A DNA stretch of 64,000 bases from a virus (IMGVR_UViG_3300042463_001805:1-64000); one strand, 5' to 3'; positions 5,406-59,473 are shown, counted from the stretch's first letter. Numbers and translations: made by a program. The notes: generated by a model from the sequence alone, not told the origin.

Positions 5406-6002
5406 ATTTTCTTTTTTTAAATAATCAAATAGAGATTTTGCCAACTTCTCACCAAATTTTATATCTGATGGGTAATGTGCTTTAGCCATTTGTCTTGAAT
5501 AGACGATATCATCTTTGATTTTTTTTAATTCAGATTTAAATTTTGGGTATTTGTAAGATAAAACTAAATAAAGTAAATTAGATTGTGTTGAATGACCCGA
5601 TGGGTATGCGAAACCTTCCATAGATTTAAGCATTGGATCCGATAATTTTGAATCAATTCTAAAAGGTCTAGGTCTTTTATAAAAATTTTTTAACTCAAGT
5701 ATTATTTCTCTAACGTCAAAAATTAACTTATTTATTAATTTATTTTCTTTTATATTTTTTTCTTTTAAAAAATTAATAAAGTTTTGAGGTATATTATCTT
5801 TTTCTTGTACAAATTTTTTTTTAAGGTCTATACTTTTTAAAAAATTAATTTCTTTTTTTGTTTGTGTACTGTTATTTGATGGTGGATATAAATTTTTAAA
5901 TGGGTAAAGATCAAAATTTTTGAATATATTATTTTTAATGGATTTAGTTTCCTGAATACTCATTAAATTTTTAATCCTATTAATTTCTTCATGTAATAAC
6001 AT
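5394..6002 (-). CDS. PAP2-superfamily acid phosphatase with N-terminal leader
   Basis: Motifs KNFYKRPRP, YPSGH, SRQMAKAHYPSD; leader LLHEEINRIKNLMSIQE. Confidence 0.85.
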   Translation of the reverse strand: MLLHEEINRIKNLMSIQETKSIKNNIFKNFDLYPFKNLYPPSNNSTQTKKEINFLKSIDLKKKFVQEKDNIPQNFINFLKEKNIKENKLINKLIFDVREIILELKNFYKRPRPFRIDSKLSDPMLKSMEGFAYPSGHSTQSNLLYLVLSYKYPKFKSELKKIKDDIVYSRQMAKAHYPSDIKFGEKLAKSLFDYLKKENLIG

Positions 6003-12978: not shown

Positions 12979-14532
12979 ATGAATTTTTTATCAGAAATTA
13001 AAAAAATTAGAAGTCTAATAAATCTTTTTGAAGGTAAAGATAAAATTGAACCGGTAGCAATAATTGGTGATAATATTGCAAAATTAGTGAGTACAAATTT
13101 TAATAATGAATATTCAGAACTGATTGATGAAAATATGGATTATGAATTATTGTATAATAAATTAAGTAGTTATGAAAATGTAGAAGATCAGGTTGAAGAC
13201 GTTTTTTTGTCAATAGGGTCGGAAGATTTTTTTGATAATAGAATAGATGTTGGTACGTTATTAGATAATTTGGATAGAATCTTTCCTAACGCCAAAATAC
13301 ACATAATAAAAGGTTATATTGATTCAGTAGAAAATAACTTAGATACTAAAAATATTGAATTATTAGAAGATAACTCCGTTTCTTTTTATAGGATTTTTCA
13401 AAAAAATAATATTAACGTTGTTGGTGATCATAAAATCTTTGGGTCGGTTAAATTAGATATTGGTGAAAATTTAATTATTGATTTAGTAGAGATAATTAAA
13501 CAATATTTTGATTTTAATGAAAGAGAAGAAGAGGATGAAGAAGAAAAAGAAGTAATTTTTAATGATTTAGATATTGACGAAAGAACGGATTTTGATGTTA
13601 TATATGAGTTTCTTTCTAATTTAGAAAAAATGGTTAAATCTAAAAATGTTTACAATACAGAATTGAAAGATAAGTATTTGGGTGATGTTGAAATAATACA
13701 AATATCTTTAAAATTTTTGGGGGTATCTTTTAGTGAGTCTTTAGAAATAAATGGAAAATATGATGAAAAAACTAAAAGATGTGTTGAGGAGTTTCAAAAA
13801 ACTAAGGGTATATCTCCCGATGGTATTGCGGATACCGATACTTTAGAAGAAATATTATGGGATTTAAAAATAAAAAGTTTTGATGATGACGATTTATTTA
13901 AATTCCTTTCAGGTGAAGAAATTGAAATGAAAGTTTATACACCTGACGTGTACGATCTAGAGGATATAATAGATAATATTATTAACAATATTGAGGGTGG
14001 GTATGCGGCAACTGAACATTTTATGGCCAACGCACATAAACAAAAAGACCCTACAGTGAGAGACGCTCTTTTAAACTCAGGTGAAACTATGTTCGGTATT
14101 GATAGAAAAAATGGGCCACAGATGGATGAGTTTTGGGAAATAGTAGATGAAAATAGTGGGTATGCCCCCGAATCTGCCGATAAAGATAAATGGACTCATG
14201 GTTATATGGGTGGTGATGTTGAAGATGAACTAAGAGAACTTGTCTATGAATGGGCAATTCCACTTTACGAAGACTACAAAAATAGTAAAATGTCTTCTGA
14301 ATTAAGAAGGTTGGTAGATGAAGATAAGAGATTGGCAACACACTTTATGTACGCATGTTGGAATGGGATAGTATTTTATAATCAATTTAAAAATATTTTA
14401 GAGTCCGAAATAAGTAATGGTAATACAGATAGAGATTCACTATGGAAAGTGGCAATTGACTCAAGAAAAAATCACTCAAATGGGGTTGCTAGATTGACAG
14501 CACCAAAAGTTGAAAAAATTGCAAATATGTAA
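12979..14532 (+). CDS. Leader + degenerate SGNH-like + peptidoglycan-binding + GH108-like lysozyme
   Basis: IIGDNIA/LSIGSED; INGKYD..T...V..FQ...GISPDGIA...TL (PG-binding); IEGGY...GETMFGIDR (GH108-like). Confidence 0.7.
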   Translation: MNFLSEIKKIRSLINLFEGKDKIEPVAIIGDNIAKLVSTNFNNEYSELIDENMDYELLYNKLSSYENVEDQVEDVFLSIGSEDFFDNRIDVGTLLDNLDRIFPNAKIHIIKGYIDSVENNLDTKNIELLEDNSVSFYRIFQKNNINVVGDHKIFGSVKLDIGENLIIDLVEIIKQYFDFNEREEEDEEEKEVIFNDLDIDERTDFDVIYEFLSNLEKMVKSKNVYNTELKDKYLGDVEIIQISLKFLGVSFSESLEINGKYDEKTKRCVEEFQKTKGISPDGIADTDTLEEILWDLKIKSFDDDDLFKFLSGEEIEMKVYTPDVYDLEDIIDNIINNIEGGYAATEHFMANAHKQKDPTVRDALLNSGETMFGIDRKNGPQMDEFWEIVDENSGYAPESADKDKWTHGYMGGDVEDELRELVYEWAIPLYEDYKNSKMSSELRRLVDEDKRLATHFMYACWNGIVFYNQFKNILESEISNGNTDRDSLWKVAIDSRKNHSNGVARLTAPKVEKIANM

Positions 14533-14854: not shown

Positions 14855-15154
14855 ATGGATAAATTATTTGAAGATATTCGCAGAATAAAGTCTTTGATGG
14901 AGTTAAAAAATGAAGATGTTGAGGAGTCAGAAATCAAAGAAGAGGGTGAGGAATCATCTAGTGCGGGATCAACCGGAGGTGGGGGTTACCCTACTGTAAA
15001 AAAACATTCAGACACTTATCAAACAAAAAGAGGTAAAGCGAATACTTTAGATATGAAAACTAAATGGGAAAGTGGTGTTGCAAGAGGTAAGGCCAATAAA
15101 ATAGATAATTCAAAATGGGAAAGTGGTAGAACAATGGGTTCCACAGGTCCTTAA
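14855..15154 (+). CDS. Small leader-bearing protein with KWESG/RGKAN repeats
   Basis: Leader LFEDIRRIKSLME; TATTTAT at 14844. Confidence 0.7.
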   Translation: MDKLFEDIRRIKSLMELKNEDVEESEIKEEGEESSSAGSTGGGGYPTVKKHSDTYQTKRGKANTLDMKTKWESGVARGKANKIDNSKWESGRTMGSTGP

Positions 15155-18211: not shown

Positions 18212-21200
18212 ATGAAAAAAGAACTTATTTCAGAAATATCACGTATTCATAAAATAATGGGGGTTAAAAATGCAACAATCATTAAAGAAAGTACTGGTTG
18301 CCCATTATGCGATGTTATTAATTCAAAAATTGATGATTTGGCAAGAAAGTTTGCCAATAAAGAAATTGGATATTCAAGATTTCAATATGAGGTTGATGAT
18401 CTAATAAAAAAAGTAGAATCCGGTGTTGATAACACTGGTAAAAAAATATTAAACTCTGCAGAATTAGAAGGACTTACACAAATCAAAAAAAATCTAGATA
18501 ATCTAAAGAAAACTTCAGATAATATTGATTCATATAAAACAGCAGTAAAAAACACAATTAATAATGCAGACCTTTTAAGTAAAAAAACATTTCAAGAGGC
18601 ATCAACAATAAAAACAAATATTATTGATAACATTGATTGGGATGCCATTAGCAAAACTCAAGAATATTCAGACTATGTTTTTAAAAATTCATCGGAAGTG
18701 AATGGTACTTTGTCATCATTTGATTCAGATTGGTTATCTAAAACTGAAGATCAAATAAAAAAATTTATTGATACGTATAAAACAATTGATGTGTATGCTG
18801 AAAACATTAAAAAGGTAATGAAGTCTTATTTTATTGAAAGCGGTATTGAGGAAACTTTATCTGAAAACCTATCAAATATGTTCAAAACATGGACAAAGGA
18901 AAACCCAAACATAAATAAACATTTTGTTGAACCAACAACAATTTATAAAAAGGCAGAAGATAGAACAGTACCACAAAGGTTTGGTAAAAATTATGATGAT
19001 ATAGATAGTGAATATTATGCATCCTTAGAATTAAATGAAGTGGATCCTCATTTTATTAAACCTCTTGATTTAGATAATGGTGTTGGGTATAGTATGGAGA
19101 ATTTTACTGATTCTAAAACTTTACAAGATTACTTGGGTGGGGGTAATAAAATTTCTGAAAAAATGGCAGATGACATAAAATTGTCTATTGAAAAGGCACA
19201 TGATAATGGATTATGTCATGGAGATTTAAATACTAATAACATTTTAATTAAAAATGATGGATCAGATTTTAGAATCATAGATCCCGTTGGTTATCCGCCA
19301 AAAGATGAAGGGTTTAAAGATTTTGATTTGGCAAAGGCCGATGATTTAGAAAAATTAAAACTGATAATAGATCCAAAAAATATAAAAGTAGATGAAACGT
19401 TTAACCCAAAAAATTTCACAATAGTTTCTGACTTTAACAGTGATAAATTTCTTAATTTAATTAATCAATTTGTTGAATCTTCAGACCCAATTAAAAGAGT
19501 GTCAATATTGAAAATTTTAACTAAAACAAAAGGAGAAAAAGATATATTAGATGCGTTTGTGACTAAATTTTCTGATAACATTTCACAGACAGAAAAAATA
19601 CAAAGTATTGATCAATTATTTGACCCAAATAAAATTGTTGATTTAACAAATTTAGCGAAAAGTTTGGTTCAAAATAAACAAACTTTGGTTAAGGGTGTAT
19701 ACCCACAATTCAATCAAGTTAGATACCCAAATTTAATTGAATTTGCATCAAGTTCAAACGCTTTGATAAGAGAGATTAAATCAAAAATGACGGACGTTGA
19801 TGTGGATAATGTTGTTTCTTATGTAAAAAATGGGGTAGAAGGGTTATCGTCTGAAAGTGTTGAAAAATTAAGTAATGGTTTACAAAACATTAATAAATCA
19901 ACAACTAATCCTGATGTTAAAAAATTTATAGAAAATGTTTTATTGGATGTTAATAAATTGTCTGATGATTTAACAAATGTTAAATTTCAAATTAATAGAT
20001 TGACTACCGCTGCCGAAAATTTTGAAGTAAAACAAGTTGCTGGTGTTAAAATAAATGAATCAGAATTAAAAAACATACAAAGAATCGTTAAAGAAAGGGG
20101 TGTTATGGAATGGGGTTGGGATAGGTCACTAGACGAGCCGTTATTTGAAAATGTAACCATAAATGGGGAACCTGTGAAATTTACAATTTCAAGAAAAGGT
20201 CCAAGAAGATATGACGGTAATAGGGCATATCAAGATAAGATTTACGATCAATTTGAAGAAGAATATCTTAAAGAATTTAATGTTAGTAACATATCTTTTG
20301 AAGATTTTTTAAAAAAACAGTTTAAAAATGATCAATCTATGCTTGATAGATATTTTCCAAAATACAATGTTAGTGGTGGTGTAAAAATGGCCGATGATGA
20401 TGGTTTTACTTGGGTTATTGTAAATCCTGAGCTGACGAAGAAAAAAAATATTGATTTTGTAACATTTCATGAAATGACTCATGTAGGTCAGAAATCTGAT
20501 TATATGAGTACTTCAAGTAATTATAGATCTCGTTTTAGTTCTTCACAAGATGCTCTAGAGTTTATGAATTCCAAAACCAATTACTCTTTTGAAAAAGGAT
20601 TGTCACCTGATAAAGAATTTGAATTTTGGAAGTTTAGAATAAGCCCAGAGGCCGGTGATGTAATTGCAAATTACAGAAAACTCACAGGTGGTGCGGATCC
20701 TTTTGGTGACTACAATGATTTTTTACCATTTAAAGAATGGGCATTGAAAAATCAATCTTTAGTTGGAGAGAAATTTTTCAAAAATGCAAAAATTTATGAA
20801 AATATAGAAAAGAATAATTTTAGTACTGACGTAAAAAGAAGGTCTTTATTATTATCATTAGAAGAAACAAGAAAAAGAGCCTATCAAAATGGTATTCCTG
20901 AAGGAATTGAAAAGATTGAAAAAATGATTGATAACGTTAAAAATTTACCTGAAGATAAATTAAATCGTTATTTAAAAAATAATGTTGACGACCCCATGCT
21001 AAGTCATAACATCATAGATTCTGCAAAAAGATTAGGTTATGGGTTAAATATACAAGAAATGGAAGCCAATTTTACTGCACTAATAAGAGAGTTAATGGAA
21101 AACGGAACAAATAAAGAAAATGTAGGTTTAGCAACGTGGATAGTTAATTATTTGAAAAAAAATAATAAGTTAGAAACATTATCAAATCTACAAAACAAAC

Positions 21201-21529: not shown

Positions 21530-22325
21530 CATAAAAGGATAAACCTGACATATATACATTAAAAAGATAATTTACATTAGTTAAATTGTTTTTAAGATAT
21601 ATTTATATATTATGAAAAAAGAACTTATTTCAGAAATATCACGTATTCATGAGATAATGGGGGTTAAAAATGCGATAATTCTTAATGAAAACGTCGCCTG
21701 TCCATTATGCGATGTTATTAATTCAAAAATTGATGATTTGGCGAGAAAATTTGCCAATAAAGAAATTGGATACTCAAGATTTCAATATGAGGTTGATGAG
21801 CTAATAAGAAAAGTAGAATCAGGCGTTGACGATACTGGTAAAAAAATACTAACAGGTAATGAGTTAGCGGGTCTTTCACAAATTAAAAAAAATCTAGATA
21901 ATCTAAAGAAAACTTCAGATAATATTGATTCATATAAAACAGCAGTAAAAAACACAATTAATAATACCGGATCTTTAAGTGACAGACCTTTATCAAGTGC
22001 AAAAAATATTAAAACAAAAATTATTGATAACATTGATTGGGATGCCATTAGCAAAACTCAAGAATATTCAGACTATGTTTTTAAAAATTCATCAGAAATA
22101 TCCGGCACTTTATCAGATACTGATAACCTTTGGTTATCTCAAACTGAAGAACAAATAAAACAATATGTTGATTTTTATAAAACAGTTGATGTTTATGCTG
22201 AAAACCTTAAAAAAACACTTAAACAATATTTTATTGGAAAAGGTTTTGATGAAACGTTTGCGGAGAATTTATCAGAAGCATTTAAAACATGGACAAAGGA
22301 AAACCCAAACATAAATAAACATTTT
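18212..22325 (+). repeat. Dispersed 714-nt direct repeat (18212-18925 and 21612-22325)
   Basis: Constant 3400-nt offset, long identical blocks, ends at identical AAAACATGGACAAAGGAAAACCCAAACATAAATAAACATTTT. Confidence 0.9.
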
Positions 22326-41438: not shown

Positions 41439-41463
41439 AAAAAGGGAGTCTAACTCCCTTTTT
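41438..41463. terminator. Bidirectional terminator
   Basis: A tract-GGGAGT-CTA-ACTCCC-T tract. Confidence 0.75.
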
Positions 41464-43150: not shown

Positions 43151-44557
43151 ATGGCAGATTTAAGACCTTTAGGTAGTGAAAAATTACAAGGTATGGATAA
43201 AATTAGACGTATCATGGAAATTGCACGATATAATGAAGTACCTAAACAAGAGATTAATGAACTTTCTACCACAAATTATACTATAACTTTATCAGATGGT
43301 AAAACATATGGTATTGTAAAAGAAAAATTAGGTTATATAATTAAAAGCGGATTAAATGAATCTACTTTGGATTATACAGAATCTATGAAACATAGAAGAC
43401 ATTATAAATCTTATTCAGAAGCAATGAAAAGATTGAATATCATGGCCGGAGAAATTAATAGATCCACAGGTTATGAATATGGTATTCCTTTGATTGGTGA
43501 ACAAGCTGAAGGAAAAAAAAAATTCGTATTAAAACAAAATAAACCAAAAACCACTGACGCCCCACCAGCTGATATGGGAGCAGGAGCCCCACCAGCCGAT
43601 ATGGGAGCAGGAGCACCACCATCTGATATGGGAGCAGGATCGCCACCTATGGACGATATGGGAGCAGGATCGCCACCTATGGACGACATGGGTGCAGGAG
43701 CACCACCAGCTGATATGGGTGCAGGAGCACCACCAGCCGATATGGGTGCAGGAGCACCACCAACAGACGCAGGAGCACCACCTATGGACGACATGGGAGC
43801 AGGATCACCACCATCAGATGATATGGGCGGAGAAGGAATGGAACCACCAATGGACGATATGGGCGAACCTGAAGATGGTGAAGAACCATCAGGACCTTCA
43901 GGATTAAAATCAATTCAAAAACTAACAGGAAGGTTAAGTCAAAAAATTAGATCTTTTGATAAAGACAAAGGTATGGATTCTCAAGATATTAAATATGTTG
44001 TAAATTCCATATTATCTGCGATAAATTTAGAAAATTTAGATGAGGATGATAGAGATGATATTATGGCAAAATTTGACGAGGTTGATGAATATGATATGGG
44101 TGATGAAGAAATTGATATGGAGGGAAGTGACGATTTAGGAATGGAAGAACCTGATATGGGTGGTGAAATGGATATGGGTGGTGAAATGACACCTCCTGAT
44201 ATGGGGACATCGCCAGCACCTGAGAAAACAGAAGGTTATTCTCACATTATGGATTCATTATTTGCTGAATCTAAAGTAGAAAAAGTTTTATCTAAATATT
44301 TTGATATCAAACCTGAAGAAAAACCAATTCTTGAGGAAAAAAGAAAAAAGGATTTTTTAAAGGAAAAATTAAAAAGAATTGAAGTTAAAAAAGAATTTAT
44401 AAAACTTAGTGAAAGTCTTTCTCAATTAGAGTCAGCCAATGAATTTTATAAATCAAATAAAAATGCAAAATTTTTAGGTAAATCAAATAAAGAAAACTTA
44501 ATTTTTGTTGTTGAAAACAAACAATATAAAGTAACACCAAGAGGAATAATTATATGA
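43151..44557 (+). CDS. Probable prohead core protein with Pro/Gly/Met tandem repeats
   Basis: Upstream of terminase; many [IL]xE sites; PPADMGAGA repeats. Confidence 0.6.
   Translation: MADLRPLGSEKLQGMDKIRRIMEIARYNEVPKQEINELSTTNYTITLSDGKTYGIVKEKLGYIIKSGLNESTLDYTESMKHRRHYKSYSEAMKRLNIMAGEINRSTGYEYGIPLIGEQAEGKKKFVLKQNKPKTTDAPPADMGAGAPPADMGAGAPPSDMGAGSPPMDDMGAGSPPMDDMGAGAPPADMGAGAPPADMGAGAPPTDAGAPPMDDMGAGSPPSDDMGGEGMEPPMDDMGEPEDGEEPSGPSGLKSIQKLTGRLSQKIRSFDKDKGMDSQDIKYVVNSILSAINLENLDEDDRDDIMAKFDEVDEYDMGDEEIDMEGSDDLGMEEPDMGGEMDMGGEMTPPDMGTSPAPEKTEGYSHIMDSLFAESKVEKVLSKYFDIKPEEKPILEEKRKKDFLKEKLKRIEVKKEFIKLSESLSQLESANEFYKSNKNAKFLGKSNKENLIFVVENKQYKVTPRGIII
43559..43863 (+). repeat. 27-30 nt coding tandem repeat (PP[AS/MD]DMGAG[AS])
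   Basis: About 10 imperfect units of CCACCAGCnGATATGGGnGCAGGA. Confidence 0.9.
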
Positions 44558-45559: not shown

Positions 45560-47344
45560 ATGTCGTTAACAAAAGAACAAGCGTTATTAGAATATGCAAA
45601 ATGTGTAAATGATACTCCTTACGCATTAAAAACATATCTACAAACATACGACAATACACAATCCAAATACGTACCGTTAGAATTATTTAATGATCAAGTT
45701 ACCCTTGTAAAAGATTACGATACATGTGAAGAAAATATTGCATTAAAGTATCGTCAGGCGGGCGTGTCTACTGTGACTTCTGCATGGGCATCAAAAAGAT
45801 TAGTTTTCGCTCGTAAAGAAAAACCTGAAAAAATCCTTATAATTGCCAACAAAATGGATACTGCCGTGGAAATGGCAAATAAAGTTCGTGCGTTTGTTGA
45901 CCAATGGCCAAAATGGATGGGTGTTGGGTTTTCTTCTGAAAAAAACTCACAGAGACACTTTAAATTAACTAATGGTTGTGAGGTTAAGGCAGTTGCAACA
46001 TCAAAAGATGCCTTACGTGGTTATACACCAACAATATTGATATTTGATGAGGCCGCGTACATCAATGCGGACGAGGACTTTTGGTCTGCTTGTATGGCGT
46101 CCCTTTCAACAGGAGGTAAAGTAATTGTAATATCAACACCAAACGGATTTGATCCAATTTATTATTCTATTTACAGTCAGGCAGTTAAAGGAATGAATGA
46201 CTTTAGAATAACTGAAATGTATTGGTTTAGAGATCCAAGATACTCTAAAGATTTACGACTAATTAAATGTGATGATATTGTTCATTACATGTTAAATAGA
46301 GGTGATTATGTTGATACAGATATCACAATTGATTATGGTAATATAAAAGTTAGTGAAAGAAACTTTGAACAGATAAAACAAAAAATAGAAAACGAAGGGT
46401 ATAAGGCTTATAGTTCTTGGTTTGAGGCTATGGCCAAAAAATTAAAGTTTGATAAGAGAAAGATTTCACAAGAGTTGGAATGTAATTTTTTAGGTTCGGG
46501 GGATAATGTTATACCTGCTGAAACTATGAAAAAAATTAAAGAAAAACATATTAAAGAACCCGAAAATAAATTTATGGGTGGTGCTCTTTGGCAATGGAAA
46601 GAACCTATTGTCGGCCACAGATATATTATGGGGGTTGACGTTTCAAGAGGAGATAGTGAAGATTTTACAACATTTACAATTATTGATTTTGATGAAAGAG
46701 AACAGGTTTTAGAATATTTAGGAAAAGTCCCACCTGATGTTGTAGCAGAAATTGCATATAAATGGGCAACCATGTATAATGCGTTTATTGTTACTGATAT
46801 AACTGGAGGTATGGGTGTTGCAACATCAAGAAAATTACAGGAACTTGGGTATAAAAATTTATATGTGGATGGAGTTAATCCGGCTGATAAATGGAAATGG
46901 GATCCAAAATCACAAGATAAAATACCTGGAATTAATTTTAACTCAAAAAGAGTTCAAATAATCGCAGCTTTTGAGGAATCATTGAGACATGGTTTTGGTG
47001 TTAGATCACAAAGATTATTTAATGAGTTAAACACATTTGTTTATGTAAATGGAAGACCCGATCACCAAAAGGGACAACATGATGATTTAATCATGGCATT
47101 AGCTATGGCGATATATGTTGGGGAAAATTCTTTCGCCCAATTAGAAAAGGCAACCGAACACGCTAAAGCAATGTTGAATTCATGGTCCACAGAAAAAAAA
47201 GAATTTAGAGAATCCCACCAAAATTTTAATCCAGGCGTTCCTGTAAGTTACATGGATAGAATGAATATGGGTATGAGTAGAAGTTCCTTAACACAAAGTG
47301 ATTACCAAAACTATTTATGGTTATTCGGAGGAAAAAGAGTTTAA
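45560..47344 (+). CDS. terL: Terminase large subunit (T4 gp17-like)
   Basis: KYRQAGVST Walker A, ILIFDEAA Walker B, ISTPNG, GVDVSRG, HDDLIMA nuclease motifs. Confidence 0.95.
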   Translation: MSLTKEQALLEYAKCVNDTPYALKTYLQTYDNTQSKYVPLELFNDQVTLVKDYDTCEENIALKYRQAGVSTVTSAWASKRLVFARKEKPEKILIIANKMDTAVEMANKVRAFVDQWPKWMGVGFSSEKNSQRHFKLTNGCEVKAVATSKDALRGYTPTILIFDEAAYINADEDFWSACMASLSTGGKVIVISTPNGFDPIYYSIYSQAVKGMNDFRITEMYWFRDPRYSKDLRLIKCDDIVHYMLNRGDYVDTDITIDYGNIKVSERNFEQIKQKIENEGYKAYSSWFEAMAKKLKFDKRKISQELECNFLGSGDNVIPAETMKKIKEKHIKEPENKFMGGALWQWKEPIVGHRYIMGVDVSRGDSEDFTTFTIIDFDEREQVLEYLGKVPPDVVAEIAYKWATMYNAFIVTDITGGMGVATSRKLQELGYKNLYVDGVNPADKWKWDPKSQDKIPGINFNSKRVQIIAAFEESLRHGFGVRSQRLFNELNTFVYVNGRPDHQKGQHDDLIMALAMAIYVGENSFAQLEKATEHAKAMLNSWSTEKKEFRESHQNFNPGVPVSYMDRMNMGMSRSSLTQSDYQNYLWLFGGKRV

Positions 47345-47382: not shown

Positions 47383-49200
47383 ATGGCACAAGAAAAATAT
47401 ACAGTTTGGCAGAGGTTGGGTAAGGTTTTTGGACCTAACGCAACTTTAGATCAACAGGCACCAGTATTTAAATTTGATAAAAAAGAATTATTAAAAACTA
47501 CAGATAAAAAAGAATTTGAGATTGAAAAGTTACAAGCTCAACAATCATTATATATTGGGCAACAATGGCAAAAAGTTGAAAGTAACCTGTACCAACAAGC
47601 GGTCTATTACGAACCAACAAGAATGGCGTCGTACTATGATTACGAATCAATGGAATATACTCCTGAAATTTCAGCGGCTTTAGACATTTATGCGGAAGAA
47701 TCAACAACGCCAGATCAAGACGGATTAATATTAAAAGTTTATTCTGAATCAAAAAGAATAAAACAAGTTTTAACGGATCTTTTTACAAACAAATTGGATA
47801 TAAATACTAACTTACCTATGTGGACAAGAAATACATGTAAGTTTGGTGATAATTTTGTGTATCTAAAATTGGATCCCGAAAAAGGGATAGTTGGGTGTCA
47901 GCAATTACCAAATATTCAAATTGAAAGATTAGAAAAAGGTATGAGATTTCAACCAGACAAATATTCTCAAGAAATGGAGAACGATGCACTTAAATTTGTT
48001 TGGAAAGAAAAAAACATGGAATTTAACACTTGGGAAGTTGGTCATTTTAGAATTTTAGGTGACGATAGAAAACTTCCTTACGGTACATCTATGTTAGAAA
48101 AAGCAAGACGTATTTGGAAACAACTACTATTATGTGAAGACGCTATGTTAATTTATCGTGTATCAAGAGCACCCGAAAGAAGAGTATTTAAAGTGTTTGT
48201 TGGTAACATGGACGATAAAGATGTTGATGCATATGTACAAAAAGTGGCAAATAAATTCAAAAGAGATCAAATTGTAGATTCAAAAACAGGTAACGTTGAT
48301 ATGAGATACAATCAAATGGCGGTTGATCAAGACTTCTTTATCCCTGTACGTGACGCTTCGGCACCTGAACCCGTAACAACATTGGCGGGAGCATCAAACT
48401 TAGCTGAAATTGCAGATATTGAATATATTCAAAAGAAACTTGTTACTGCACTTAGAATACCAAAGGCTTATTTAGGTTTTGAAGAAGCTGTTGGTGATGG
48501 TAAAAACTTATCATTATTAGACATAAGATTTGCTAGAACAATTAATAGAATTCAAAAATCTATGATTGCAGAATTAAATAAAATAGCAATTATTCATTTA
48601 TTTTTATTAGGGTTTGAAGACGAATTAACGAACTTTACTTTATCATTGAATAATCCGTCTAAACAAGGAGAACTATTATCTTTAGAAATTTGGAAAGAAA
48701 AAATTACATTATATAAAGACGCAACTGCTGAGATTGCAAAATCATTAGCACCTGTTTCTGCTTCTTGGGCTAAAAAACACATATTAGGATTTTCCGATGA
48801 AGAAATTAGATTGGACATCCAACAACAAAGAGTTGAACGTGCGGTTTATGCTGAATTAGAAAAAACTGCAGAAGTTATCACTAAAACAGGTTTATTTGAT
48901 AATATTGATAAATTATACGGTAAAAAAGAAGGTGAAGCAGCTGGAGCAGCTGGAGGTGATGCCGCGGCAGGTGGAGCACCACCGGCAGGAGGAGACATGG
49001 GTGGAGGAGCACCTCCGCCACCACCACCATCAGGCGGTGCGGAAGGAGGAGGCGTCACTCCCGAAAGATTTGTAAGAAATGACTTAGATTTAATTTTGGA
49101 AGAGACGTTATTTAACGAATCAAATAATTTAGATTTATCAAAAGGTAGAAATTCTTTAGTGGAAATTGATCAAAAATTAAAAAATTTGATTGATAAGTAA
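47383..49200 (+). CDS. gp20: Portal protein (T4 gp20-like)
   Basis: PEI..ALDIYAEE, EDAMLIYR.SRAPERRVF...VGN, DIEY..KKL..AL.IPK. Confidence 0.95.
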   Translation: MAQEKYTVWQRLGKVFGPNATLDQQAPVFKFDKKELLKTTDKKEFEIEKLQAQQSLYIGQQWQKVESNLYQQAVYYEPTRMASYYDYESMEYTPEISAALDIYAEESTTPDQDGLILKVYSESKRIKQVLTDLFTNKLDINTNLPMWTRNTCKFGDNFVYLKLDPEKGIVGCQQLPNIQIERLEKGMRFQPDKYSQEMENDALKFVWKEKNMEFNTWEVGHFRILGDDRKLPYGTSMLEKARRIWKQLLLCEDAMLIYRVSRAPERRVFKVFVGNMDDKDVDAYVQKVANKFKRDQIVDSKTGNVDMRYNQMAVDQDFFIPVRDASAPEPVTTLAGASNLAEIADIEYIQKKLVTALRIPKAYLGFEEAVGDGKNLSLLDIRFARTINRIQKSMIAELNKIAIIHLFLLGFEDELTNFTLSLNNPSKQGELLSLEIWKEKITLYKDATAEIAKSLAPVSASWAKKHILGFSDEEIRLDIQQQRVERAVYAELEKTAEVITKTGLFDNIDKLYGKKEGEAAGAAGGDAAAGGAPPAGGDMGGGAPPPPPPSGGAEGGGVTPERFVRNDLDLILEETLFNESNNLDLSKGRNSLVEIDQKLKNLIDK

Positions 49201-50969: not shown

Positions 50970-51674
50970 ATGAAAATATTAGGACCTAAAGATACGGGTA
51001 AAGGAATACTTGTTGAGTGGGATGCTGGAATCATTAACCCAAATGAGTATAGAAACAGTCAAGTTTTAAAAGAATCGTATGGCCAACTAGACCACTCAAA
51101 ACCATTTGTTTTTTACGCTACTTTACAAAAATATGGAGTACCAAATAGAAATGGTAGAATTTATCCTGAAAAAATATTAAAAAGAGAAACTGAAAAGTAT
51201 AAAGAGATGATCAATAGAGGGATGTCTATTTCTGAACTTAATCACCCAGAATCTTCTCTGATTGATTTAGATAGAGTTGCTCACCTTATTACTGATGTGT
51301 GGTGGGAAGATAACGTATTGATGGGTAAAATTAAATTATTGACAACACCAGGATTTCATGAAAGAGGGATTGTTTCATCAAAAGGTGACATTGCGGCAAA
51401 CATGATGAGACAAGGTGTGACTATGGGTGTTTCTTCTCGTGGTGTAGGATCTTTAGTAAAAAAAGGAGAACAAAATGAAGTGCAGGATGATTTTGAATTA
51501 ATTTGTTTTGATTTGGTTTCTTCACCATCAACACCTGGTGCATATCTTTACCTTAATAAAGAAGATAGACCTAAATACGAAGAAAATTTAACAGAGCATC
51601 AAGAAATAGAATCAAATCCTTTGAGTAAATCTGTTGACTTAATGAAAAGATTATCCGATTATTTGGATAAATAA
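50970..51674 (+). CDS. gp21: Prohead core protease (T4 gp21-like)
   Basis: NRNGRIYP, SELNHP, GVSSRGVGS, FDLVSSPSTPGA. Confidence 0.93.
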   Translation: MKILGPKDTGKGILVEWDAGIINPNEYRNSQVLKESYGQLDHSKPFVFYATLQKYGVPNRNGRIYPEKILKRETEKYKEMINRGMSISELNHPESSLIDLDRVAHLITDVWWEDNVLMGKIKLLTTPGFHERGIVSSKGDIAANMMRQGVTMGVSSRGVGSLVKKGEQNEVQDDFELICFDLVSSPSTPGAYLYLNKEDRPKYEENLTEHQEIESNPLSKSVDLMKRLSDYLDK

Positions 51675-52047: not shown

Positions 52048-53688
52048 ATGAGTATGAATGAAAAATCGGTAGTAGAAGACGCTTTATTACAAATTAAGGC
52101 GGTTGAAAATGCTATCAGTGAAAATGCAAAAGGAATACTTGCTTCTACTATGAAGGAAGAAATCAGTGAATTAGTAAGGGAATCTCTTGGAGGTTCAAAA
52201 AAAAGAAGTCTACGTGAACAAGAAGAACAAGGCCAAGAAGTTGGTGTAGAAGACGAAGAAGTAGACGTAGAAGAACCTGTTGATGGTATGGAAGGTGAGG
52301 AAGTTGTTGTTGATGACGAAACGGAAGTTGTTGATGATGGTGAAGAATTACCTGTAGAACCTGAAATGGGAGATAATCTAGGCGGTGAATTACCACCATT
52401 AGATATGACGCAATCATCAATTGGTGACGTAATCAAAGTTTTTAAATTAATGGGTGACGAAGATGGTATTATTGTTAAAAAAGACGAAAAAGGTATCCAT
52501 TTATCTGACCCAAAAAATGAAACAGAATATCTAATACAAATGGATGGTGACACCGAAAATCCACAAAATATGATGGAAAATTCAATGATAGATGCAATTA
52601 GATCAGTCAGACCAAATCAATATGAAAATTATGGATCTGAATTTAATGAGCAAGAAGAAACCGGTTTCGGGTACGATGAGTATGGTGATGAGGGTGAAGA
52701 CTACAGTGATTCTTATTTTGATGAATTAGAAGAAGAGTACGGTATGGAAGAACAAGATTTTCCTATGGAAGAGTACGGTATGGAAGAACAAGATTTTCCT
52801 ATGGAAGAGTATGGTATGGAAGAACAAGATTTTCCTATGGAAGAACAAGATTTTCCTATGGAAGAACAAGATTTTCCTATGGAAGAGTACGGTATGGAGG
52901 AAAACGTTTACGAGATAGATCAAGAAGCTCTTGAGTCTGTTTTGGAATCTTTTAAAGCTAAAGGACTTGGAATGGGTAAACCAGGTAATGGTTTCTCAAA
53001 AATGTCAGTTAACGATAAAGGTTTCAAAGAAGATAGAAAAAGTGGAGGTAAAGGTTTAACAGGTAAAGGTCCTAAATTCAAATATCCTAAAATCAAACAC
53101 GGAGTAACTGAAAATGAATTTGAAGAAGAAGAATTCAATGAGTGGGAAGACGAAACAAACGAAGAATTAATTGATACTAAAGAACAACCGGAAACTACTG
53201 AAGCCTCAAGAACTTTAGGTAATGGTAAATATTGGGGTAGAAAAGGTTTACCTAAACCAAGAACCGCACCTAGACACCTTAGAGTAGAATCAGTAAACGG
53301 AGAGTTAAACTTGTTGAGAGAAAAAAATGAAGAATACAAAAAAGCGTTAGATTTCTTTAGAACAAAACTTAATGAAGTTGCGGTATTTAATTCTAACTTA
53401 GCGTATTCTACACGTTTGTTTACAGAACACTCAACAACAAAACAAGAAAAGATTAATATTCTTAGAAGATTTGACTCAGTTGAATCATTAAAAGAATCTA
53501 AAAATCTTTACCAATCAATCAAAAGAGAACTTGACGGAAAAGGTACTCAACCTGTGGTTACTGAATCAATTCAGAGAAAAGTAACTAAAACTCCACAATC
53601 AGGATCAGCAACAAATTTGATTGAAAGTAAAACTTATGAAAATCCACAATTTATGAGAATTAAGGATTTAATGACAAAAATAAACTAA
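52048..53688 (+). CDS. Prohead scaffold protein (gp22-equivalent)
   Basis: Between protease and major capsid genes; very acidic; coiled-coil C-terminal region with LNEV..FN.NL.Y. Confidence 0.8.
   Translation: MSMNEKSVVEDALLQIKAVENAISENAKGILASTMKEEISELVRESLGGSKKRSLREQEEQGQEVGVEDEEVDVEEPVDGMEGEEVVVDDETEVVDDGEELPVEPEMGDNLGGELPPLDMTQSSIGDVIKVFKLMGDEDGIIVKKDEKGIHLSDPKNETEYLIQMDGDTENPQNMMENSMIDAIRSVRPNQYENYGSEFNEQEETGFGYDEYGDEGEDYSDSYFDELEEEYGMEEQDFPMEEYGMEEQDFPMEEYGMEEQDFPMEEQDFPMEEQDFPMEEYGMEENVYEIDQEALESVLESFKAKGLGMGKPGNGFSKMSVNDKGFKEDRKSGGKGLTGKGPKFKYPKIKHGVTENEFEEEEFNEWEDETNEELIDTKEQPETTEASRTLGNGKYWGRKGLPKPRTAPRHLRVESVNGELNLLREKNEEYKKALDFFRTKLNEVAVFNSNLAYSTRLFTEHSTTKQEKINILRRFDSVESLKESKNLYQSIKRELDGKGTQPVVTESIQRKVTKTPQSGSATNLIESKTYENPQFMRIKDLMTKIN
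52729..52900 (+). repeat. Coding tandem repeat (EEQDFPM / EEYGM units)
   Basis: Five copies of GAAGAACAAGATTTTCCTATG interleaved with GAAGAGTAyGGTATG. Confidence 0.9.
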
Positions 53689-53765: not shown

Positions 53766-55574
53766 ATGGGAGCATTATTAGAATCAGGTCTTGTTGGTAA
53801 CATCGGTCTTAAGCACTTGAAAGTTATCAAAGAAGATACAATTAACAAATGGGATAGATTAGGATTCCTAGACGGTCTTAAAGGACACGTTAAAGAGAAC
53901 ATGGCACAATTATATGAAAACCAAGCGTCTCACCTAATTAACGAAGCAGCATCTACTGACAGTTCAGGTTCATTTGAAACTGTAGTATTTCCTATCGTTA
54001 GAAGAGTATTCTCTAAATTATTAGCAAATGATTTAGTATCTGTACAAGCAATGAACTTACCAATCGGTAAATTGTTCTACTTTGTACCTAAAATTCAAGG
54101 TTATAACTCAGCTGATACCGCTGCAGGAACAAACCACTTCGCACCAATTGGTTCGGCAAACTATAACGCGGCTGATGGTACAGGTTATGATGGTGCTGAC
54201 GCTTACGCTAAAAATCTTTATGATTTATTTTATGAAGGTGCTGAGGCGGCATTAGATCCTCCAGGATTATTTGACTATTCTAAAGGTACATGGACTGCAG
54301 TTACAGCAACTACAACAATCCAAGTTTGGTCAAATGGATCATTAGTTGATTCATTGGCTCCAACAGGTGTTCAAAGAAAACTTCTTGTTAAAATGTGTGG
54401 TTTTTATGATAATGGTGTTGGTAAATTAATCGGACCTGATGGATCAGAGGTTGATAGTGAGACTTTCTTGTCTGACTTAAAAATTATCAGATCAACAGGT
54501 TTGAGTATTGCTGAAGGTAGTGCTTGTTCTGTTCCTACAGCAACTCCATTGTTGTTTAGAGTCGTTACTCAACAATACGGTAAAGGTATTGTTTCTCCTA
54601 CATATACACAAACACCAACAACATTCCCTAACGGAAATGGTGGATCTTATGATCAAGTTTGTGATCAAAACGGATGTATCTATTTAGAAGTTGATCTTTC
54701 TTGTCCTGTATGTGCTGATTGTAACGCATCATCTTTAGATGGTTATACAGGAGCAACAATCACTTCAGGTTCTTCGGGTACTTCTTTTGTAGCTGTATTT
54801 AGAAGATATGCTGAATTAGAATTTGAAGATAAAATTGGTGAAGTATCTTTTGACCTTGAGTCAGTTACTGTATCAGTTACAGAAAGAAAACTAAGAGCAC
54901 AATGGTCACCTGAATTAGCACAAGACGTTTCTGCATTCCATAACATTGACGCTGAGGCTGAATTAACAGCATTATTGTCTGAGCAAGTGGCAGCAGAAAT
55001 TGATAGAGAAATCTTGAGAGACCTTAGAAAAGGTGCAGCTTGGAACCTAAGATGGGATTACAACGGATGGAGAAGAATTCCAGGAAACATGACTTATACT
55101 CAAAAAGATTGGAATCAAACTTTGATCACAGCAATTAACCAATTGTCAGCACAAATCCACAAATCTACATTGAGAGGTGGGGCTAACTGGATTGTTGTAT
55201 CTTCTGAAGTTTCTGCTATCTTTGATGACCTAGAGTACTTCCACGTATCTAACGCTTCTCCGGAGCAAGATCAGTACAACATGGGTATTGAAAGAGTTGG
55301 TACATTAGCAGGTCGTTACCAAGTGTATAGAGATCCATACTTCCCAGCTAACCAAATCCTTATTGGACACAAAGGTTCATCTTTGTTAGATACAGGATAT
55401 GTTTACGCTCCGTATGTACCTCTACAATTAACACCTACAATGTATAACCCATTCAACTTTACACCTATCAAAGGTATCATGACCAGATACGCTAAGAAAA
55501 TGGTTAACAACCGTTTCTATGGTAGAATCACAGTTGATGGAGTTAGAACATTTGACTTACAAGAATTGAGATAA
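53766..55574 (+). CDS. gp23: Major capsid protein (T4 gp23-like)
   Basis: FPIVRRVF..L.A..LVSVQ.M..P.G, RKLRAQWSPELAQD..AFH.IDAEAELT, GYVYAPYVPL, TRYA. Confidence 0.96.
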   Translation: MGALLESGLVGNIGLKHLKVIKEDTINKWDRLGFLDGLKGHVKENMAQLYENQASHLINEAASTDSSGSFETVVFPIVRRVFSKLLANDLVSVQAMNLPIGKLFYFVPKIQGYNSADTAAGTNHFAPIGSANYNAADGTGYDGADAYAKNLYDLFYEGAEAALDPPGLFDYSKGTWTAVTATTTIQVWSNGSLVDSLAPTGVQRKLLVKMCGFYDNGVGKLIGPDGSEVDSETFLSDLKIIRSTGLSIAEGSACSVPTATPLLFRVVTQQYGKGIVSPTYTQTPTTFPNGNGGSYDQVCDQNGCIYLEVDLSCPVCADCNASSLDGYTGATITSGSSGTSFVAVFRRYAELEFEDKIGEVSFDLESVTVSVTERKLRAQWSPELAQDVSAFHNIDAEAELTALLSEQVAAEIDREILRDLRKGAAWNLRWDYNGWRRIPGNMTYTQKDWNQTLITAINQLSAQIHKSTLRGGANWIVVSSEVSAIFDDLEYFHVSNASPEQDQYNMGIERVGTLAGRYQVYRDPYFPANQILIGHKGSSLLDTGYVYAPYVPLQLTPTMYNPFNFTPIKGIMTRYAKKMVNNRFYGRITVDGVRTFDLQELR

Positions 55575-55725: not shown

Positions 55726-58305
55726 ATGAAAAATTTTTTAATAATACTATTCACCTTAGTTTCTTTTTTGGGTTTTACACAAGTATCAAGTCTTTATTCA
55801 TTTTCTGAGACAACCGGTACATATACGGCAATTGTTGGTGGTACGCAATTAGTAACAACAATTGGCGGTGCCGTCACTTATGATACTGATGGTAGTTATT
55901 TTACAATACCTTCCGGATCACAATTTCAGTTTAATAATACAACAATTACATCTGTTAATATGACAGCAGATGGTGCTTTGTTTTTAAACCCAGGAACAAC
56001 AACAACAGGAAATAGTGTAACTGGACCATTATCATCAACAGGTACTGCAGTGGGTGTTATTGCAGGTATGGGTATGGATTTAAGAAGTACGGCAATTGCG
56101 TCACAAGTATATGAAAGAAGATGGGAGGATGTAGGCACTGAAGTGGTGTTTCAATGGCAAAATGCCGCAAGATATTTACAAAGTAGTTCAGAAAGATTTT
56201 CATTTCAAATTAGAGTAAACAAATCAAATGGTCAAATAAGTGTTGTGTATGGTAATATGACGACAATTACAACAAGTACAACTTATCAACCAATGGTTGG
56301 TTTAAGGGGTTCCACAAATACAGACTACAATAACAGAAGATTAACAACTTCTATACCGGATGCAACACCAAATTGGGGAGCACCAAATGGTACAACCGCT
56401 GGAACATCTAATGCTCACAACGTAAGGTTTCGTAGTGGATGTGTCCCTTCAACAGGGTTAATATTTATTTGGACTGTGCAGTCTTGTATAGGTCCTACAT
56501 TACCAATAATATCGTACACTTCATCATCAACCGCAAATCTTTCTTGGACGGCACCTGGTTCTCCACCATCTAATGGGTATAATTGGGAACTTAGATCATC
56601 AGGTGCTGGTGGAAGTGGGGCAACAGGTCTAGTATCTTCAGGTTCTGTCGCCGCAGGAACAACATCTGCAACCGCAAACGGTTTAACACAACAAACATCA
56701 TATACTTTATATGTACAAAGTAATTGTGGTGGTTTAACAAGTTCTTGGGTTGCATCAACCGCAAGTACAAGTCCACCAACTAATAATGATTGTTCAAATG
56801 CAACATCTGTCACAGTAAACAGTTCTTCAACCTGTACCTCAACAACTTCCGCTAGTAGTGTTGGTGCAACACAATCTTCAGCGGCATGTGCCGGTACAGG
56901 TGCTGATGATGACGTATGGTTTTCTTTTGTTGCAACAAATACTTCACATGTTCTTACTGTCACACCAGGTACTATGGCTGATGTTGTTTTTCAAGTGTAT
57001 GGTGGTAATTGTGGTGGACTTTCATCACTATCTTGTATTGATGCGACGGCAGGTTATAGTGTAGAAACCACAACAGTTAATAGTTTAAGTATTGGTGTTA
57101 CTTACTACATAAGAATTCATAGTTACGCATCCACTGTTGGGTCAAGGGGTACTTTTACAGTTTGTATTACAACACCCTGTACGACACCAACAACCGCAGG
57201 AACACTTTCTTCTAACAAAACATCTACCGTTGTAAATGATGCTGTTACATTCTCAATTGTGGGAAATGGAGGTAGTGTAACATTATTAGAATGGTCTTTT
57301 AATAATTTTAGTACAGTTGACGGATCAATTACAAATCCAGTTATGCCATACACATTACAACTAAATGTTGCACAAACAAATATGTATTTTAGAGCAACTT
57401 CAGTAAATGGTTCTTGTCCTGCTGGTGTTACATCACCAATTTTAGTCACATTAGAACTTGCACCACCATATACTTATGGGGTTAGTGATGGTGATTATAT
57501 AACAAATGTAACTTTAAGTGATATTAATAATACATCTACTGAAGACGGAGACGCGTATTCTGATTACCTTTCAATTGTTGGTAATTTAGACATCGGTGGT
57601 GTTTATACAATATCTGTTTCAGGTACACTAACTTTTGGTTCGTACCCTGGTTATAGTGCTTGGATTGATTGGGACCAAGACGGGGTATTTCAAACAACAG
57701 AAAATGTATTATTATCGGCACCAGGTGCGATAGGTTCCGCATCTGTTAATGTACCAAATGATGCTATTGGGGGTACAGTTAAAATGAGAGTACTTTCTGT
57801 TTGGAATGCAACACCAACAAATGATGCTTATTATTCAACAGGATATGGTTATGGTGAAATAGAAGAATACAGTATACTATTAAGTGTCCCATTACCTGTT
57901 GAATTGAGTCAATTTGAAGGTGATTTATACCCATTATTTAATGTGATTAAATGGTCAACAGAATCTGAAAACAACTCAAGTCATTTTGATTTAGAATCAA
58001 GTAATGACGGTAATAATTGGAAGACTATTACAACAAAATCTGCCGCTGGTAATAGTAATGAAACTATAAGATATTCATATATTGATAATAATTTAAATAG
58101 TATTGTTTATTATAGATTACAACAATTTGATATTGACGGTAAATTTGAAACGTATGGACCGATAGTTATCACGAGGGATGTTACAGATAAAAAAATTATA
58201 GGTTATATTAATTTAATGGGTCAAGAAGTTAAACCTGAAAATGTACATGGAATTATAATTGAAATTTATGATGATGGAACTATGAGAAAAATAACCAAAT
58301 ATTAA
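55726..58305 (+). CDS. Secreted Bacteroidota-type surface protein (FN3-like, GEVED-like, C-terminal T9SS-associated region)
   Basis: Signal peptide ending FT|Q; PPTNNDC..A, DDDVWFSF, AWIDWDQDGVF...E, GEIEEY, PLPVEL..F, W.T.SENNS.HF, YYRL.QFD.DG, NLMGQ. Confidence 0.85.
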   Translation: MKNFLIILFTLVSFLGFTQVSSLYSFSETTGTYTAIVGGTQLVTTIGGAVTYDTDGSYFTIPSGSQFQFNNTTITSVNMTADGALFLNPGTTTTGNSVTGPLSSTGTAVGVIAGMGMDLRSTAIASQVYERRWEDVGTEVVFQWQNAARYLQSSSERFSFQIRVNKSNGQISVVYGNMTTITTSTTYQPMVGLRGSTNTDYNNRRLTTSIPDATPNWGAPNGTTAGTSNAHNVRFRSGCVPSTGLIFIWTVQSCIGPTLPIISYTSSSTANLSWTAPGSPPSNGYNWELRSSGAGGSGATGLVSSGSVAAGTTSATANGLTQQTSYTLYVQSNCGGLTSSWVASTASTSPPTNNDCSNATSVTVNSSSTCTSTTSASSVGATQSSAACAGTGADDDVWFSFVATNTSHVLTVTPGTMADVVFQVYGGNCGGLSSLSCIDATAGYSVETTTVNSLSIGVTYYIRIHSYASTVGSRGTFTVCITTPCTTPTTAGTLSSNKTSTVVNDAVTFSIVGNGGSVTLLEWSFNNFSTVDGSITNPVMPYTLQLNVAQTNMYFRATSVNGSCPAGVTSPILVTLELAPPYTYGVSDGDYITNVTLSDINNTSTEDGDAYSDYLSIVGNLDIGGVYTISVSGTLTFGSYPGYSAWIDWDQDGVFQTTENVLLSAPGAIGSASVNVPNDAIGGTVKMRVLSVWNATPTNDAYYSTGYGYGEIEEYSILLSVPLPVELSQFEGDLYPLFNVIKWSTESENNSSHFDLESSNDGNNWKTITTKSAAGNSNETIRYSYIDNNLNSIVYYRLQQFDIDGKFETYGPIVITRDVTDKKIIGYINLMGQEVKPENVHGIIIEIYDDGTMRKITKY

Positions 58306-58322: not shown

Positions 58323-59033
58323 ATGAATATTAATTTAATTGTTAAAAACATATTGAAAGAGGCAAATTCTGACAGATATGCAGGTTATTATAATGGACCA
58401 TTAACAATGGGTGAAATTGATTGGGAAAAATCCTCTTTAGGTCCTTTTACAAATAAAGTTTCAAAATTTTTTAATGCTGAGCTAGAGTATGATAGTTATG
58501 ATGGTTCTTTGGACTCACATAAAAAAGATAGAAAAAAATTAGAAACAAAATCTCGTAAAATTTCTAAATACAATAAAAAACATCCTCAAGCAAATGATGA
58601 AGATGGTGGAATTATTAATCAAACACCAGGTAAAGGTAAAAGAATTGTTCCTGTTAATGAATGGGTTGAATTAGATAAAATACCATTAAATGAAGATTTA
58701 GCCGTTTGGTTTGGAAAAAAGAAAAAGCCAAAAGGATCGTCACAACCAAAAGGGCCGTGGGTGGATATATGTAGAAAAGTTGATGGTAAACATCCTCCTT
58801 GTGGTAGAAGTGACACTAGTAAAGGTGCGTATCCTAAATGTAGAGCCGCTGGTGTTGCTGGCAAAATGTCTGATTCACAAAAAAGATCTGCATGTCAACA
58901 AAAAAGAAGAGCGGAGAAAAAAGATACTCAGTCAGGTAAGGGGCAAAAACCTGTAATGACCTCTTATAAAACAAAAAAGACTCAAAAAGAGTCTTTAGAT
59001 ATCATTGTAAGAAATATTTTATCAGGTCTTTAA
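58323..59033 (+). CDS. Leader-bearing basic protein with W..W.D.C/CGR/YPKC motifs
   Basis: INLIVKNILKE; LNEDLAVWFG..WVDIC..CGRS..YPKCR; TATTTAT at 58308. Confidence 0.7.
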   Translation: MNINLIVKNILKEANSDRYAGYYNGPLTMGEIDWEKSSLGPFTNKVSKFFNAELEYDSYDGSLDSHKKDRKKLETKSRKISKYNKKHPQANDEDGGIINQTPGKGKRIVPVNEWVELDKIPLNEDLAVWFGKKKKPKGSSQPKGPWVDICRKVDGKHPPCGRSDTSKGAYPKCRAAGVAGKMSDSQKRSACQQKRRAEKKDTQSGKGQKPVMTSYKTKKTQKESLDIIVRNILSGL

Positions 59034-59473
59034 CAATATGGTGGTGAACATCTTCTTTTACCGTCCAGTCCTTTAATTTTTCCTTTACAAACTTGTACAC
59101 CGTGACCATTACTATATGCACTTGGAAATACATCATATCTTGATTTAGCCGCCGCTTTACCTCTAGCACATAATTTAGTTCCCGTTTTTTTACGACCTTC
59201 TTCAATCATATCTTCTTCATAATCACTACCACCTTCCATTTCATTTTTTAAAAAATCAAAAACTTGGTCCATATTATTTTTAGCTTCAGAGATATGGTCT
59301 TGGGCCCAATCATGTCCGTTTTCTAAAATAGACTCAATTTCATCTTGATCCATATCCAATAACATTTCACACTGTCTCTTCATTTGTTCAAGATTTGAAA
59401 AGAACATATATCTACTTGAATGTTTTTTTTCTTCTTCTCTTAATACTCTTTTTATTATTCTACTGATATTCAT
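59030..59473 (-). CDS. Leader-bearing protein with PSAY motif
   Basis: ISRIIKRVLREE; HDWAQDH; LCARGKAAAK..YDVFPSAY. Confidence 0.7.
   Translation of the reverse strand: MNISRIIKRVLREEEKKHSSRYMFFSNLEQMKRQCEMLLDMDQDEIESILENGHDWAQDHISEAKNNMDQVFDFLKNEMEGGSDYEEDMIEEGRKKTGTKLCARGKAAAKSRYDVFPSAYSNGHGVQVCKGKIKGLDGKRRCSPPYC

Follow-up and report, generated by a model that had tools for sequence, protein, structure and literature searches.

The stretch of viral DNA analysed here, referred to as the window, is the first 64 kb (IMGVR_UViG_3300042463_001805:1-64000; 64,000 nucleotides) of a 97-kb record in the IMG/VR database and contains, at 52048-53688, the gene for the scaffolding protein of a head of the T4 type. 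The last ~20 residues of this scaffold and the first 18-26 residues of unrelated proteins are probably, to judge from their sequences, two uses of one short amphipathic helix that would function as a removable prohead-incorporation signal. The consensus of the helix is E/Q-h-x-R-[IMW]-[KQ]-x-L-[M/A]-x-x-h. An earlier note on this DNA had proposed that N-terminal leaders of cargo proteins, designated class A, mimic the C-terminal helix of the scaffold, and leaders and tail do have one motif in common, as the same octapeptide, RMQKLAGI, is found both as a scaffold C-terminal tail and as the N-terminal leader of unrelated proteins.

When the viral contigs of IMG/VR were scanned for DNA that encodes RMQKLAGI without any change, at least 121 matches were obtained, and the counts that follow are among the matches listed. 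There are 94 C-terminal tails, 26 N-terminal leaders that start at residues 7-16 of their open reading frames (ORFs) and a single internal copy, positioned 40 residues before the stop codon. Within 4 residues of the stop codon of ORFs of 200-590 residues are 89 of the tails, with 5 further C-terminal copies in short or cut ORFs; 1 copy is in a 5′-cut ORF. An ORF with the gp23-type sequence ..LP[LIV]VR[RK].. follows 74 of the 76 C-tail ORFs that have at least 600 nucleotides of downstream DNA, which identifies those ORFs as scaffold genes. The mature parts of 25 of the leader proteins fall into 22 blastp families. The leader is portable in the window as well, being carried there by PAP2, PG_binding_1, kinase-like and unknown proteins. 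In a local set of 814,834 residues, the related motif R[IM]K[DNSTQK][LI]M has 69 occurrences at a C-end, 3 at an N-end and 1 in the interior.

The pattern h-x-R-h-[KRH]-x-h-h, written after the sequences had been seen, occurs five times in 20,150 residues, at four N-termini, at the scaffold C-end and nowhere in the interior; the shuffle expectation is 0.06 N-terminal, 0.02 C-end and 0.43 interior occurrences, or ~0.5 in total. A profile of 13 columns was constructed from 11 N-terminal leaders only (4 from the window genome, 3 from the related genome G001, 2 from G005 and 2 from Flavobacterium phage immuto), in which the R column of the motif is at residues 9-13 and so within the first ~20 residues of the ATG-start ORFs. 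As the profile never saw a tail, the test is free of circularity. The leader at 21612 and weaker candidates at 1235, 33829 and 43151 were omitted from the profile, and two naive motif finders applied to N-termini were discarded because they caught the start Met or signal peptides. When 394,696 residues, in 1520 ORFs from seven genomes or fragments (the record of the window, immuto, Mel-JY01, RM378, G001, G003 and G005), were scanned with the profile, five of the seven scaffold tails ranked within the top 31 of ~395,000 positions, at 15 (immuto, 21.1 bits), 18 (Mel-JY01, 18.8), 24 (G003, 13.6), 27 (window, 13.1) and 31 (RM378, 12.6). The 13.1 bits of the window tail are reached by 1.3e-5 of interior positions and by 5 of 1513 other C-ends and, with the window's own leaders left out of the profile, the tail scores 15.3 bits, a value reached by 9.6e-6 of interior positions. 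The top non-training match is the leader at 21612 (23.6 bits), and the best matches beyond this and the training sites are mostly protein C-ends. At 12 bits or more, there are 3 N-end, 11 C-end and 11 interior non-training matches, corresponding to rates per 10,000 positions of 0.99, 6.0 and 0.34, respectively.

Class A motifs scoring 19-24 bits are also present at the C-ends of small non-scaffold proteins, as exemplified by G000:C1:87352-87576(-), outside the window, which ends in NEEINRINKLIKITQ, and there are further C-end copies in a 175-residue protein at G003 8088 that ends in SEEILRVKKLMKL and in a 178-residue protein at G001 33122(-) with ..YEEVKKIKKLITY.., which suggests that the label serves C-terminally beyond the scaffold too. 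In the 387-residue ORF at G005:C1:297898, a copy of the G005 variant of the tail, ..NESIDKMKHLWEF.., is internal (residue 281) and, as in the tail, preceded by ..NES; this ORF could be a second scaffold-like protein or could be mis-joined.

The three leaders to which the scaffold end had originally been compared are indeed the N-termini of ORFs, at 5394-6002(-), 14855-15154 and 18212-21529, that begin with MLLHEEINRIKNLMSI, MDKLFEDIRRIKSLMEL and MKKELISEISRIHKIMGV, respectively. The candidate cargo in the window, selected by sequence, consists of a PAP2 phosphatase, a peptidoglycan-binding protein, a 99-residue protein and two large paralogues (Table 1). The kinase-family matches of the larger paralogue, encoded at 18212, are under the Pfam cut-offs. 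In 104 aligned orthologues of the PAP2 protein, MLLxEEIxRIKNLM and the [IL]-x-E that follows are kept and the linker after them is variable.

The ORF at 52048-53688 is a scaffold by position and composition, the call being made because the ORF is acidic and repetitive and occupies the place of gp22 in T4. Acidic repeats in the middle of the protein are followed by a conserved C-terminal domain and then by the tail. The ORF has no Pfam or PHROG family match, comparison of the scaffold profile with PDB sequences gave no match of relevance and no solved relative, and hhalign comparison of the scaffold alignment with T4 gp22 gave a probability of 0.3%, with homology not found. It is located between homologues of gp21 and gp23, an order also present in immuto, Mel-JY01, XaC1 and S-SCSM1, and is homologous to the gene in the same position in immuto (E 1.7e-9) and in Mel-JY01 (5.1e-12). 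A search of metagenomic sequences with residues 380-546 identified at least 8000 homologues of the C-terminal domain (scored candidates, each with an E of 0.01 or better), and scaffold homologues comprise 1504 representatives of clusters at 50% identity. The sequence end is as previously quoted: 53641-53688 encodes NPQFMRIKDLMTKIN and the stop codon, within the longer ending ..NLIESKTYENPQFMRIKDLMTKIN.

A putative cleavage site is present beside the helix in both settings. The consensus of the T4 prohead protease is L/I-x-E. In the clade of the window, an [ILV]-x-E is at the place immediately upstream of the tail in 263 of 265 scaffolds, as LIE in 193 of these. Among the RMQKLAGI matches listed, each of the 27 leaders has an [ILV]-x-E that ends 2-5 residues past the motif (14.5% in the background), a count that uses a looser split taking in the one internal case. 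Of the 94 tails listed, 84 have an [ILV]-x-E no farther than 16 residues upstream, and the gap to the motif is mostly 6 (24% in the background). Proteases of the T4 family cut after Glu within a short motif (PMC9026906). Cleavage presumably occurs at the [ILV]-x-E that flanks the helix, which appears to be a detachable module in both the leader and the tail setting, and the S77 protease encoded at 50970..51674 is presumed to be the enzyme that takes off both.

The tail is at the extreme C-end in 120 of the 120 close homologues listed and in 145 of 145 further representatives; the earlier note had raised the possibility of a tail not conserved in homologues, and it is kept in all 265. PQ[FIY]xR[MI][KR][DE][LIM]M is matched by 238 of these and the other 27 have variants, for example PQITAIKDLMRKIS and PELEKMKKLWDY. 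In distant phages with the same gene order, the scaffold ends with ..ERMKKLAGIVK (Mel-JY01), ..ERIKRLAGL (RM378), ..SRMQKLADIS (LR756508), ..SRWQKLAGIIK (immuto, with the tail ..SEQVSRWQKLAGIIK) and ..SRWQKIAGIK (G006). Two ORFs of immuto begin MKKQILSEQF[KR]RMQ[FK]LAGIITE and, when the immuto tail was compared with the 229 ORFs of its own proteome, these two were the top matches, with scores of 38 and 31, followed by a next-best score of 23. The G006 genome (183 kb, complete by CheckV) has the leaders ..IKRMQKLAGILSE and ..VKKLQKIAGILKE, also recorded as ..KRMQKLAGILSE and ..KKLQKIAGILKE, and the tail ..VSRWQKIAGIK. In G005, the tail ..LEKMKKLWDY.. and one leader, ..VHKMKNLMKY, both carry K at the position of the R seen in other phages. 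There are thus two variants: the window, G001 and G005 belong to an LM-type clade, immuto and G006 to an LAGI-type clade. In the five genomes with both tail and leaders, which are these same five, the summed match of each tail to its own leaders (the diagonal) ranked third among 120 permutations when mean scores were used and fourth when maximum scores were used.

Several results weigh against a common signal. By ungapped BLOSUM62 alignment of the tail 14-mer with the 66 ORFs of the window, there are 3 scores of 21 or more and residue shuffles predict 3.1; taken pairwise, the window tail resembles its own leaders no more than chance predicts, and pairwise scans were dropped as a test for this reason. 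The close resemblance claimed in the earlier note therefore holds by pattern and by the leader-only profile (13.1 bits) but not by pairwise BLOSUM62. The leaders in the profile were chosen by regular expression and by eye, the ORFs follow a longest-ATG-start rule on which all N-terminal positions hinge, and the G001 and G005 tails score poorly on the pooled profile, at 2.1 and 7.8 bits. When the profile is made from the four leaders of the window alone, the window tail scores 5.5 bits and the RM378 tail 12.8 bits, and phage-specific matching is therefore absent inside the clade of the window. The joint change is mainly the split between LM-type and LAGI-type, and so amounts to one or two independent events. 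Co-variation, put forward earlier as a check, is accordingly seen between clades, where tail and leaders shift together (3/120), but not inside that of the window. Despite their tails, Mel-JY01, RM378 and LR756508 had no detectable leaders of the class A kind. The search in LR756508, made with the exact pattern only, also covered LR756511 and XaC1 and found no leaders there, and no class A leader was found in G003, a 98-kb relative that is probably a fragment without the cargo region. As several phages have the tail without leaders, the tail must have a role of its own and leader use must be lineage-specific. T4 is the one system of this type that has been studied experimentally, and a counterpart of its capsid-targeting sequence (CTS) is absent from the last 25 residues of T4 gp22, gp21, gp67 and gp68, with a best score of 6 relative to a self-score of 46. 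Finally, the case for an incorporation signal is drawn wholly from sequence.

If, as we nevertheless favour, tail and leaders are one incorporation signal, the scaffold would hold its partner in the assembling T4-type prohead through the C-end helix, and cargo with the same helix at its N-end would co-assemble by the same contact. The gp21-like protease would then cut at the flanking [ILV]-x-E, which follows the helix in leaders and precedes it in the tail, so that the scaffold body could be removed and the mature cargo ejected later. That the leader is the scaffold's own conserved end suggests that cargo is chosen by making the scaffold's contact. The helix presumably binds a partner. By analogy with P22 and herpesviruses, this may be the inner face or the propeptide of the capsid protein; the scaffold core, as for T4 internal proteins, or direct bundling with scaffold tails is almost as likely and suits the data just as well, and some other partner is rather doubtful. 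Complex prediction for the capsid protein with the last 50 residues of the scaffold gave 0.00 in both runs, relative to a mark of 0.32, with the fold of the partner uncertain, an outcome that counts neither for nor against such binding.

Bundling also provides an explanation in its own right, in which leaders pair directly with scaffold tails in a like-with-like bundle and cargo rides in on the scaffold, much as T4 internal proteins enter with the core. Near-identical helices, with RMQKLAGI in both, would suit homotypic bundles, tail and leaders change together and T4 propeptides confer affinity for the core (PMC9026906). The helix is, however, only ~11 residues long with an unremarkable hydrophobic moment (75th-92nd percentile), and the phages with a tail but without leaders indicate a separate role for the tail, and we consider this explanation unlikely. 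It is very unlikely that the shared helix is a docking exosite for the prohead protease, located beside the scissile bond, with scaffold and leader proteins merely both substrates. The phage does encode an S77 protease and the motif is always within a few residues of [ILV]-x-E, but the side of the putative scissile bond on which it is located differs between leaders and tails, which would be awkward for one geometry, the capsid protein's own putative site (..HLINE/A) has no such helix beside it, and proteases of the T4 family are said to need very few determinants beyond the Glu motif (PMC9026906).

The likeness could also have arisen without a common function. Leaders might be copies of the 3′-end of the scaffold gene put onto other genes by module shuffling, which persist without the partner of the tail, and in immuto the residues that precede the motif also agree (SEQV.. 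in the tail, SEQF.. in the leaders). Leaders are nevertheless conserved across orthologues in which the adjacent linker is free to vary, are present on ~22 unrelated families and have kept the Glu site beside the helix in all 27 cases among the matches listed, all of which points to selection on the leader itself and makes copying highly improbable. Chance convergence of functionally separate amphipathic helices, in a K/I/N/E-rich proteome encoded by DNA with 31% G+C, would be consistent with the shuffle-level pairwise scores and with the 116 occurrences of the loose pattern h..h..hh in the window proteome, but is scarcely credible given the leader-only profile statistics, the confinement of the motif to protein ends, its conservation and the presence of the same tail-leader relation in phages that have another variant of the motif and a G+C content of 34-41%.

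The incorporation-signal reading has its closest parallel in T4. Propeptides target the internal proteins of T4 to the core and are then removed by gp21 cutting after Glu (PMC9026906), and a 2023 review of the T4 head states that the mechanism of protein localisation 'remains mysterious' (PMC9958956). As with the CTSs of internal proteins II and III (IPII, IPIII), the leaders are short propeptides found at the N-termini of unrelated proteins, and the phage has head genes of the gp20, gp21 and gp23 types (PMC9026906, PMC9958956); direction into the prohead, here proposed, and gp21-type removal after Glu, here putative, are also in common. The window encodes both the gp21-type (S77) protease and the gp23-type capsid protein (PF03420, PF07068) of T4-type CTS phages. 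IPII and IPIII, however, both begin MKTYQEFIAE, which by eye has no motif in common with E-h-x-R-h-K-x-L-M, and only here does the leader repeat the motif of the scaffold tail, an indication of a receptor logic not known for T4. The anatomy is most likely that of the T4 CTS principle.

Shells of P22 have been loaded by engineers through cargo fused to the coat-binding part of the scaffold, and we know of no natural P22 cargo that copies the scaffold end. P22 also differs in being without a maturation protease. Its scaffold has a C-terminal helix-turn-helix that is reported to be essential for shell contact (bioRxiv 10.1101/2022.12.13.520362). A C-terminal scaffold element is thus found in both systems and is conserved here; coat binding is known for P22 and is here only a candidate function. 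In herpesviruses, scaffold and protease have one C-terminal tail in common, which binds to the major capsid protein and is cut off at the maturation site. There too, several proteins enter the procapsid by means of a single tail and cleavage at a protease site directly upstream frees the scaffold, but the sharing results from nested in-frame genes and is C-terminal only, whereas here the N-ends of many separate genes are involved and the phage protease is without the scaffold tail motif (-1.3 bits). Encapsulin cargo-loading peptides and the C-terminal signal of the HK97 protease are likewise short terminal peptides that dock cargo inside a shell of the HK97 fold, but these systems have no separate scaffold for cargo to imitate and the peptide is not removed at a flanking protease site. 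Literature searches on the topic listed known work on T4, SPN3US and P1; the motif strings were in no relevant paper and, within the entries listed and the opening lines of their abstracts, a likeness of scaffold tail to leader was not found described. The principle of capsid-targeting propeptides is known, and what is new here is that the signal is the scaffold's own end.

The head module is listed, together with the leaders, in Table 1. CheckV estimates the 97-kb record as 33% complete, consistent with a phage of jumbo size. The gp23-like capsid protein is one candidate receptor for the helix. Its residues 1-60 (53766-53945; MGALLESGLVGNIGLKHLK..) are near-invariant within the clade and finish with ..HLINE/A, a likely site of propeptide cutting as in T4 gp23. 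The C-end of the protease, previously described as a further amphipathic helix (VDLMKRLSDYL), is amphipathic, at the 98th percentile of hydrophobic moment, but is not a copy of the motif by the leader profile; the portal C-end, though strongly amphipathic, also does not fit the motif (-0.3 bits).

Table 1. Leaders, scaffold elements and head genes located in the window
Feature	Position	Strand	Sequence	Remarks
Class A leader, PAP2-family protein	5949..6002	-	MLLHEEINRIKNLMSIQE	PAP2 domain PF01569
Class A leader, 517-residue protein with peptidoglycan-binding domain	12979..13032	+	MNFLSEIKKIRSLINLFE	PG_binding_1 at 3.7e-11
Class A leader, 99-residue protein	14855..14914	+	MDKLFEDIRRIKSLMELKNE	29.2 bits; training site of profile
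Class A leader, 1105-residue protein	18212..18289	+	MKKELISEISRIHKIMGVKNATIIKE	Weak kinase-like match
Leader, 900-residue protein	21612..21689	+		Paralogue of N-terminal part of 18212 protein
Large terminase	45560-47344			Head module of T4 type
Portal	47383-49200			Portal_T4; head module of T4 type
gp21-like prohead protease (Peptidase_S77)	50970..51674	+		PF03420 2.4e-23; phrog_207 2.3e-44
Scaffolding protein gene, 546 residues	52048..53688	+		Between S77 protease and gp23-like major capsid protein genes
Putative gp21-type protease site	53617..53625	+	L-I-E	Residues 524-526, just upstream of tail
C-terminal tail peptide	53626..53685	+	SKTYENPQFMRIKDLMTKIN	Motif core F535-I545 at 53650-53682
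gp23-like major capsid protein	53766..55574	+		PF07068 at 2.1e-73

Other leader-like elements are present in the window. A second class of N-terminal leader (M..RLTESDLTRIVRRVINE or ..IKESDLIRMIKRMVSE) begins the ORFs at 38900-39517, 39538-40158, 40830-41438 and 6464-6871 and is present at the N-ends of G003 and G005 ORFs too. A profile of this class, made from two seeds, matches the capsid segment ETVVFPIVRRVFS (residues 71-83) at 12.1 bits in four phages; the segment is located just past the putative propeptide site, and the match is weak and could be fortuitous. The large proteins encoded at 1-1209, 15164-18205 and 25227-27692 begin with a third leader-like pattern (..ISENDRRSILSMYNL.., ..ITEEEKKHIRGLYSS.., ..ISEDEKKHILNKYNL..). 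The protein encoded at 58323-59033 has similar helices at both ends (MNINLIVKNILKEA.. and ..ESLDIIVRNILSGL), and its neighbour at 59030-59473(-) begins with MNISRIIKRVLREE. These double-ended helices recall T4 Alt, a protein with a propeptide at each terminus (PMC9026906). At 43151-44557, a 468-residue protein with PPADMGAGA-type repeats, acidic stretches and a scaffold-like composition, conserved in G003 (18575), starts with ..GMDKIRRIMEIARYNE, which scores 5.2 bits on the class A profile; this may be a second core protein. Signal peptides of the Bacteroidota type (..F[ST]Q) start the ORFs at 55726-58305, 9113-10861, 35559-36155(-), 40219-40704(-) and 41463-41936(-), and the C-end of the 859-residue ORF among these resembles a type IX secretion sorting domain. 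Together, these features hint at a Bacteroidota host.

With the cargo leader recognised as the conserved scaffold end, the question of the receptor becomes directly testable. A broader and more doubtful proposal is that, in abundant aquatic T4-like and jumbo phages, the scaffold helix at either protein end is a universal label that would load proteins through the scaffold-tail site on the capsid protein and would then be cut off. Should the label indeed fit a capsid-protein site, this would reveal the receptor logic that has long been sought for capsid-targeting sequences, and the helix would constitute a packaging tag of natural origin that can be programmed. Phages of this kind are common, as the at least 8000 scaffold homologues and 1504 clusters attest. 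The leader also offers a simple sequence rule by which unknown proteins that are packaged, and possibly injected, might be predicted, and in the window this rule picks out the PAP2 phosphatase, the peptidoglycan-binding protein and two very large proteins.

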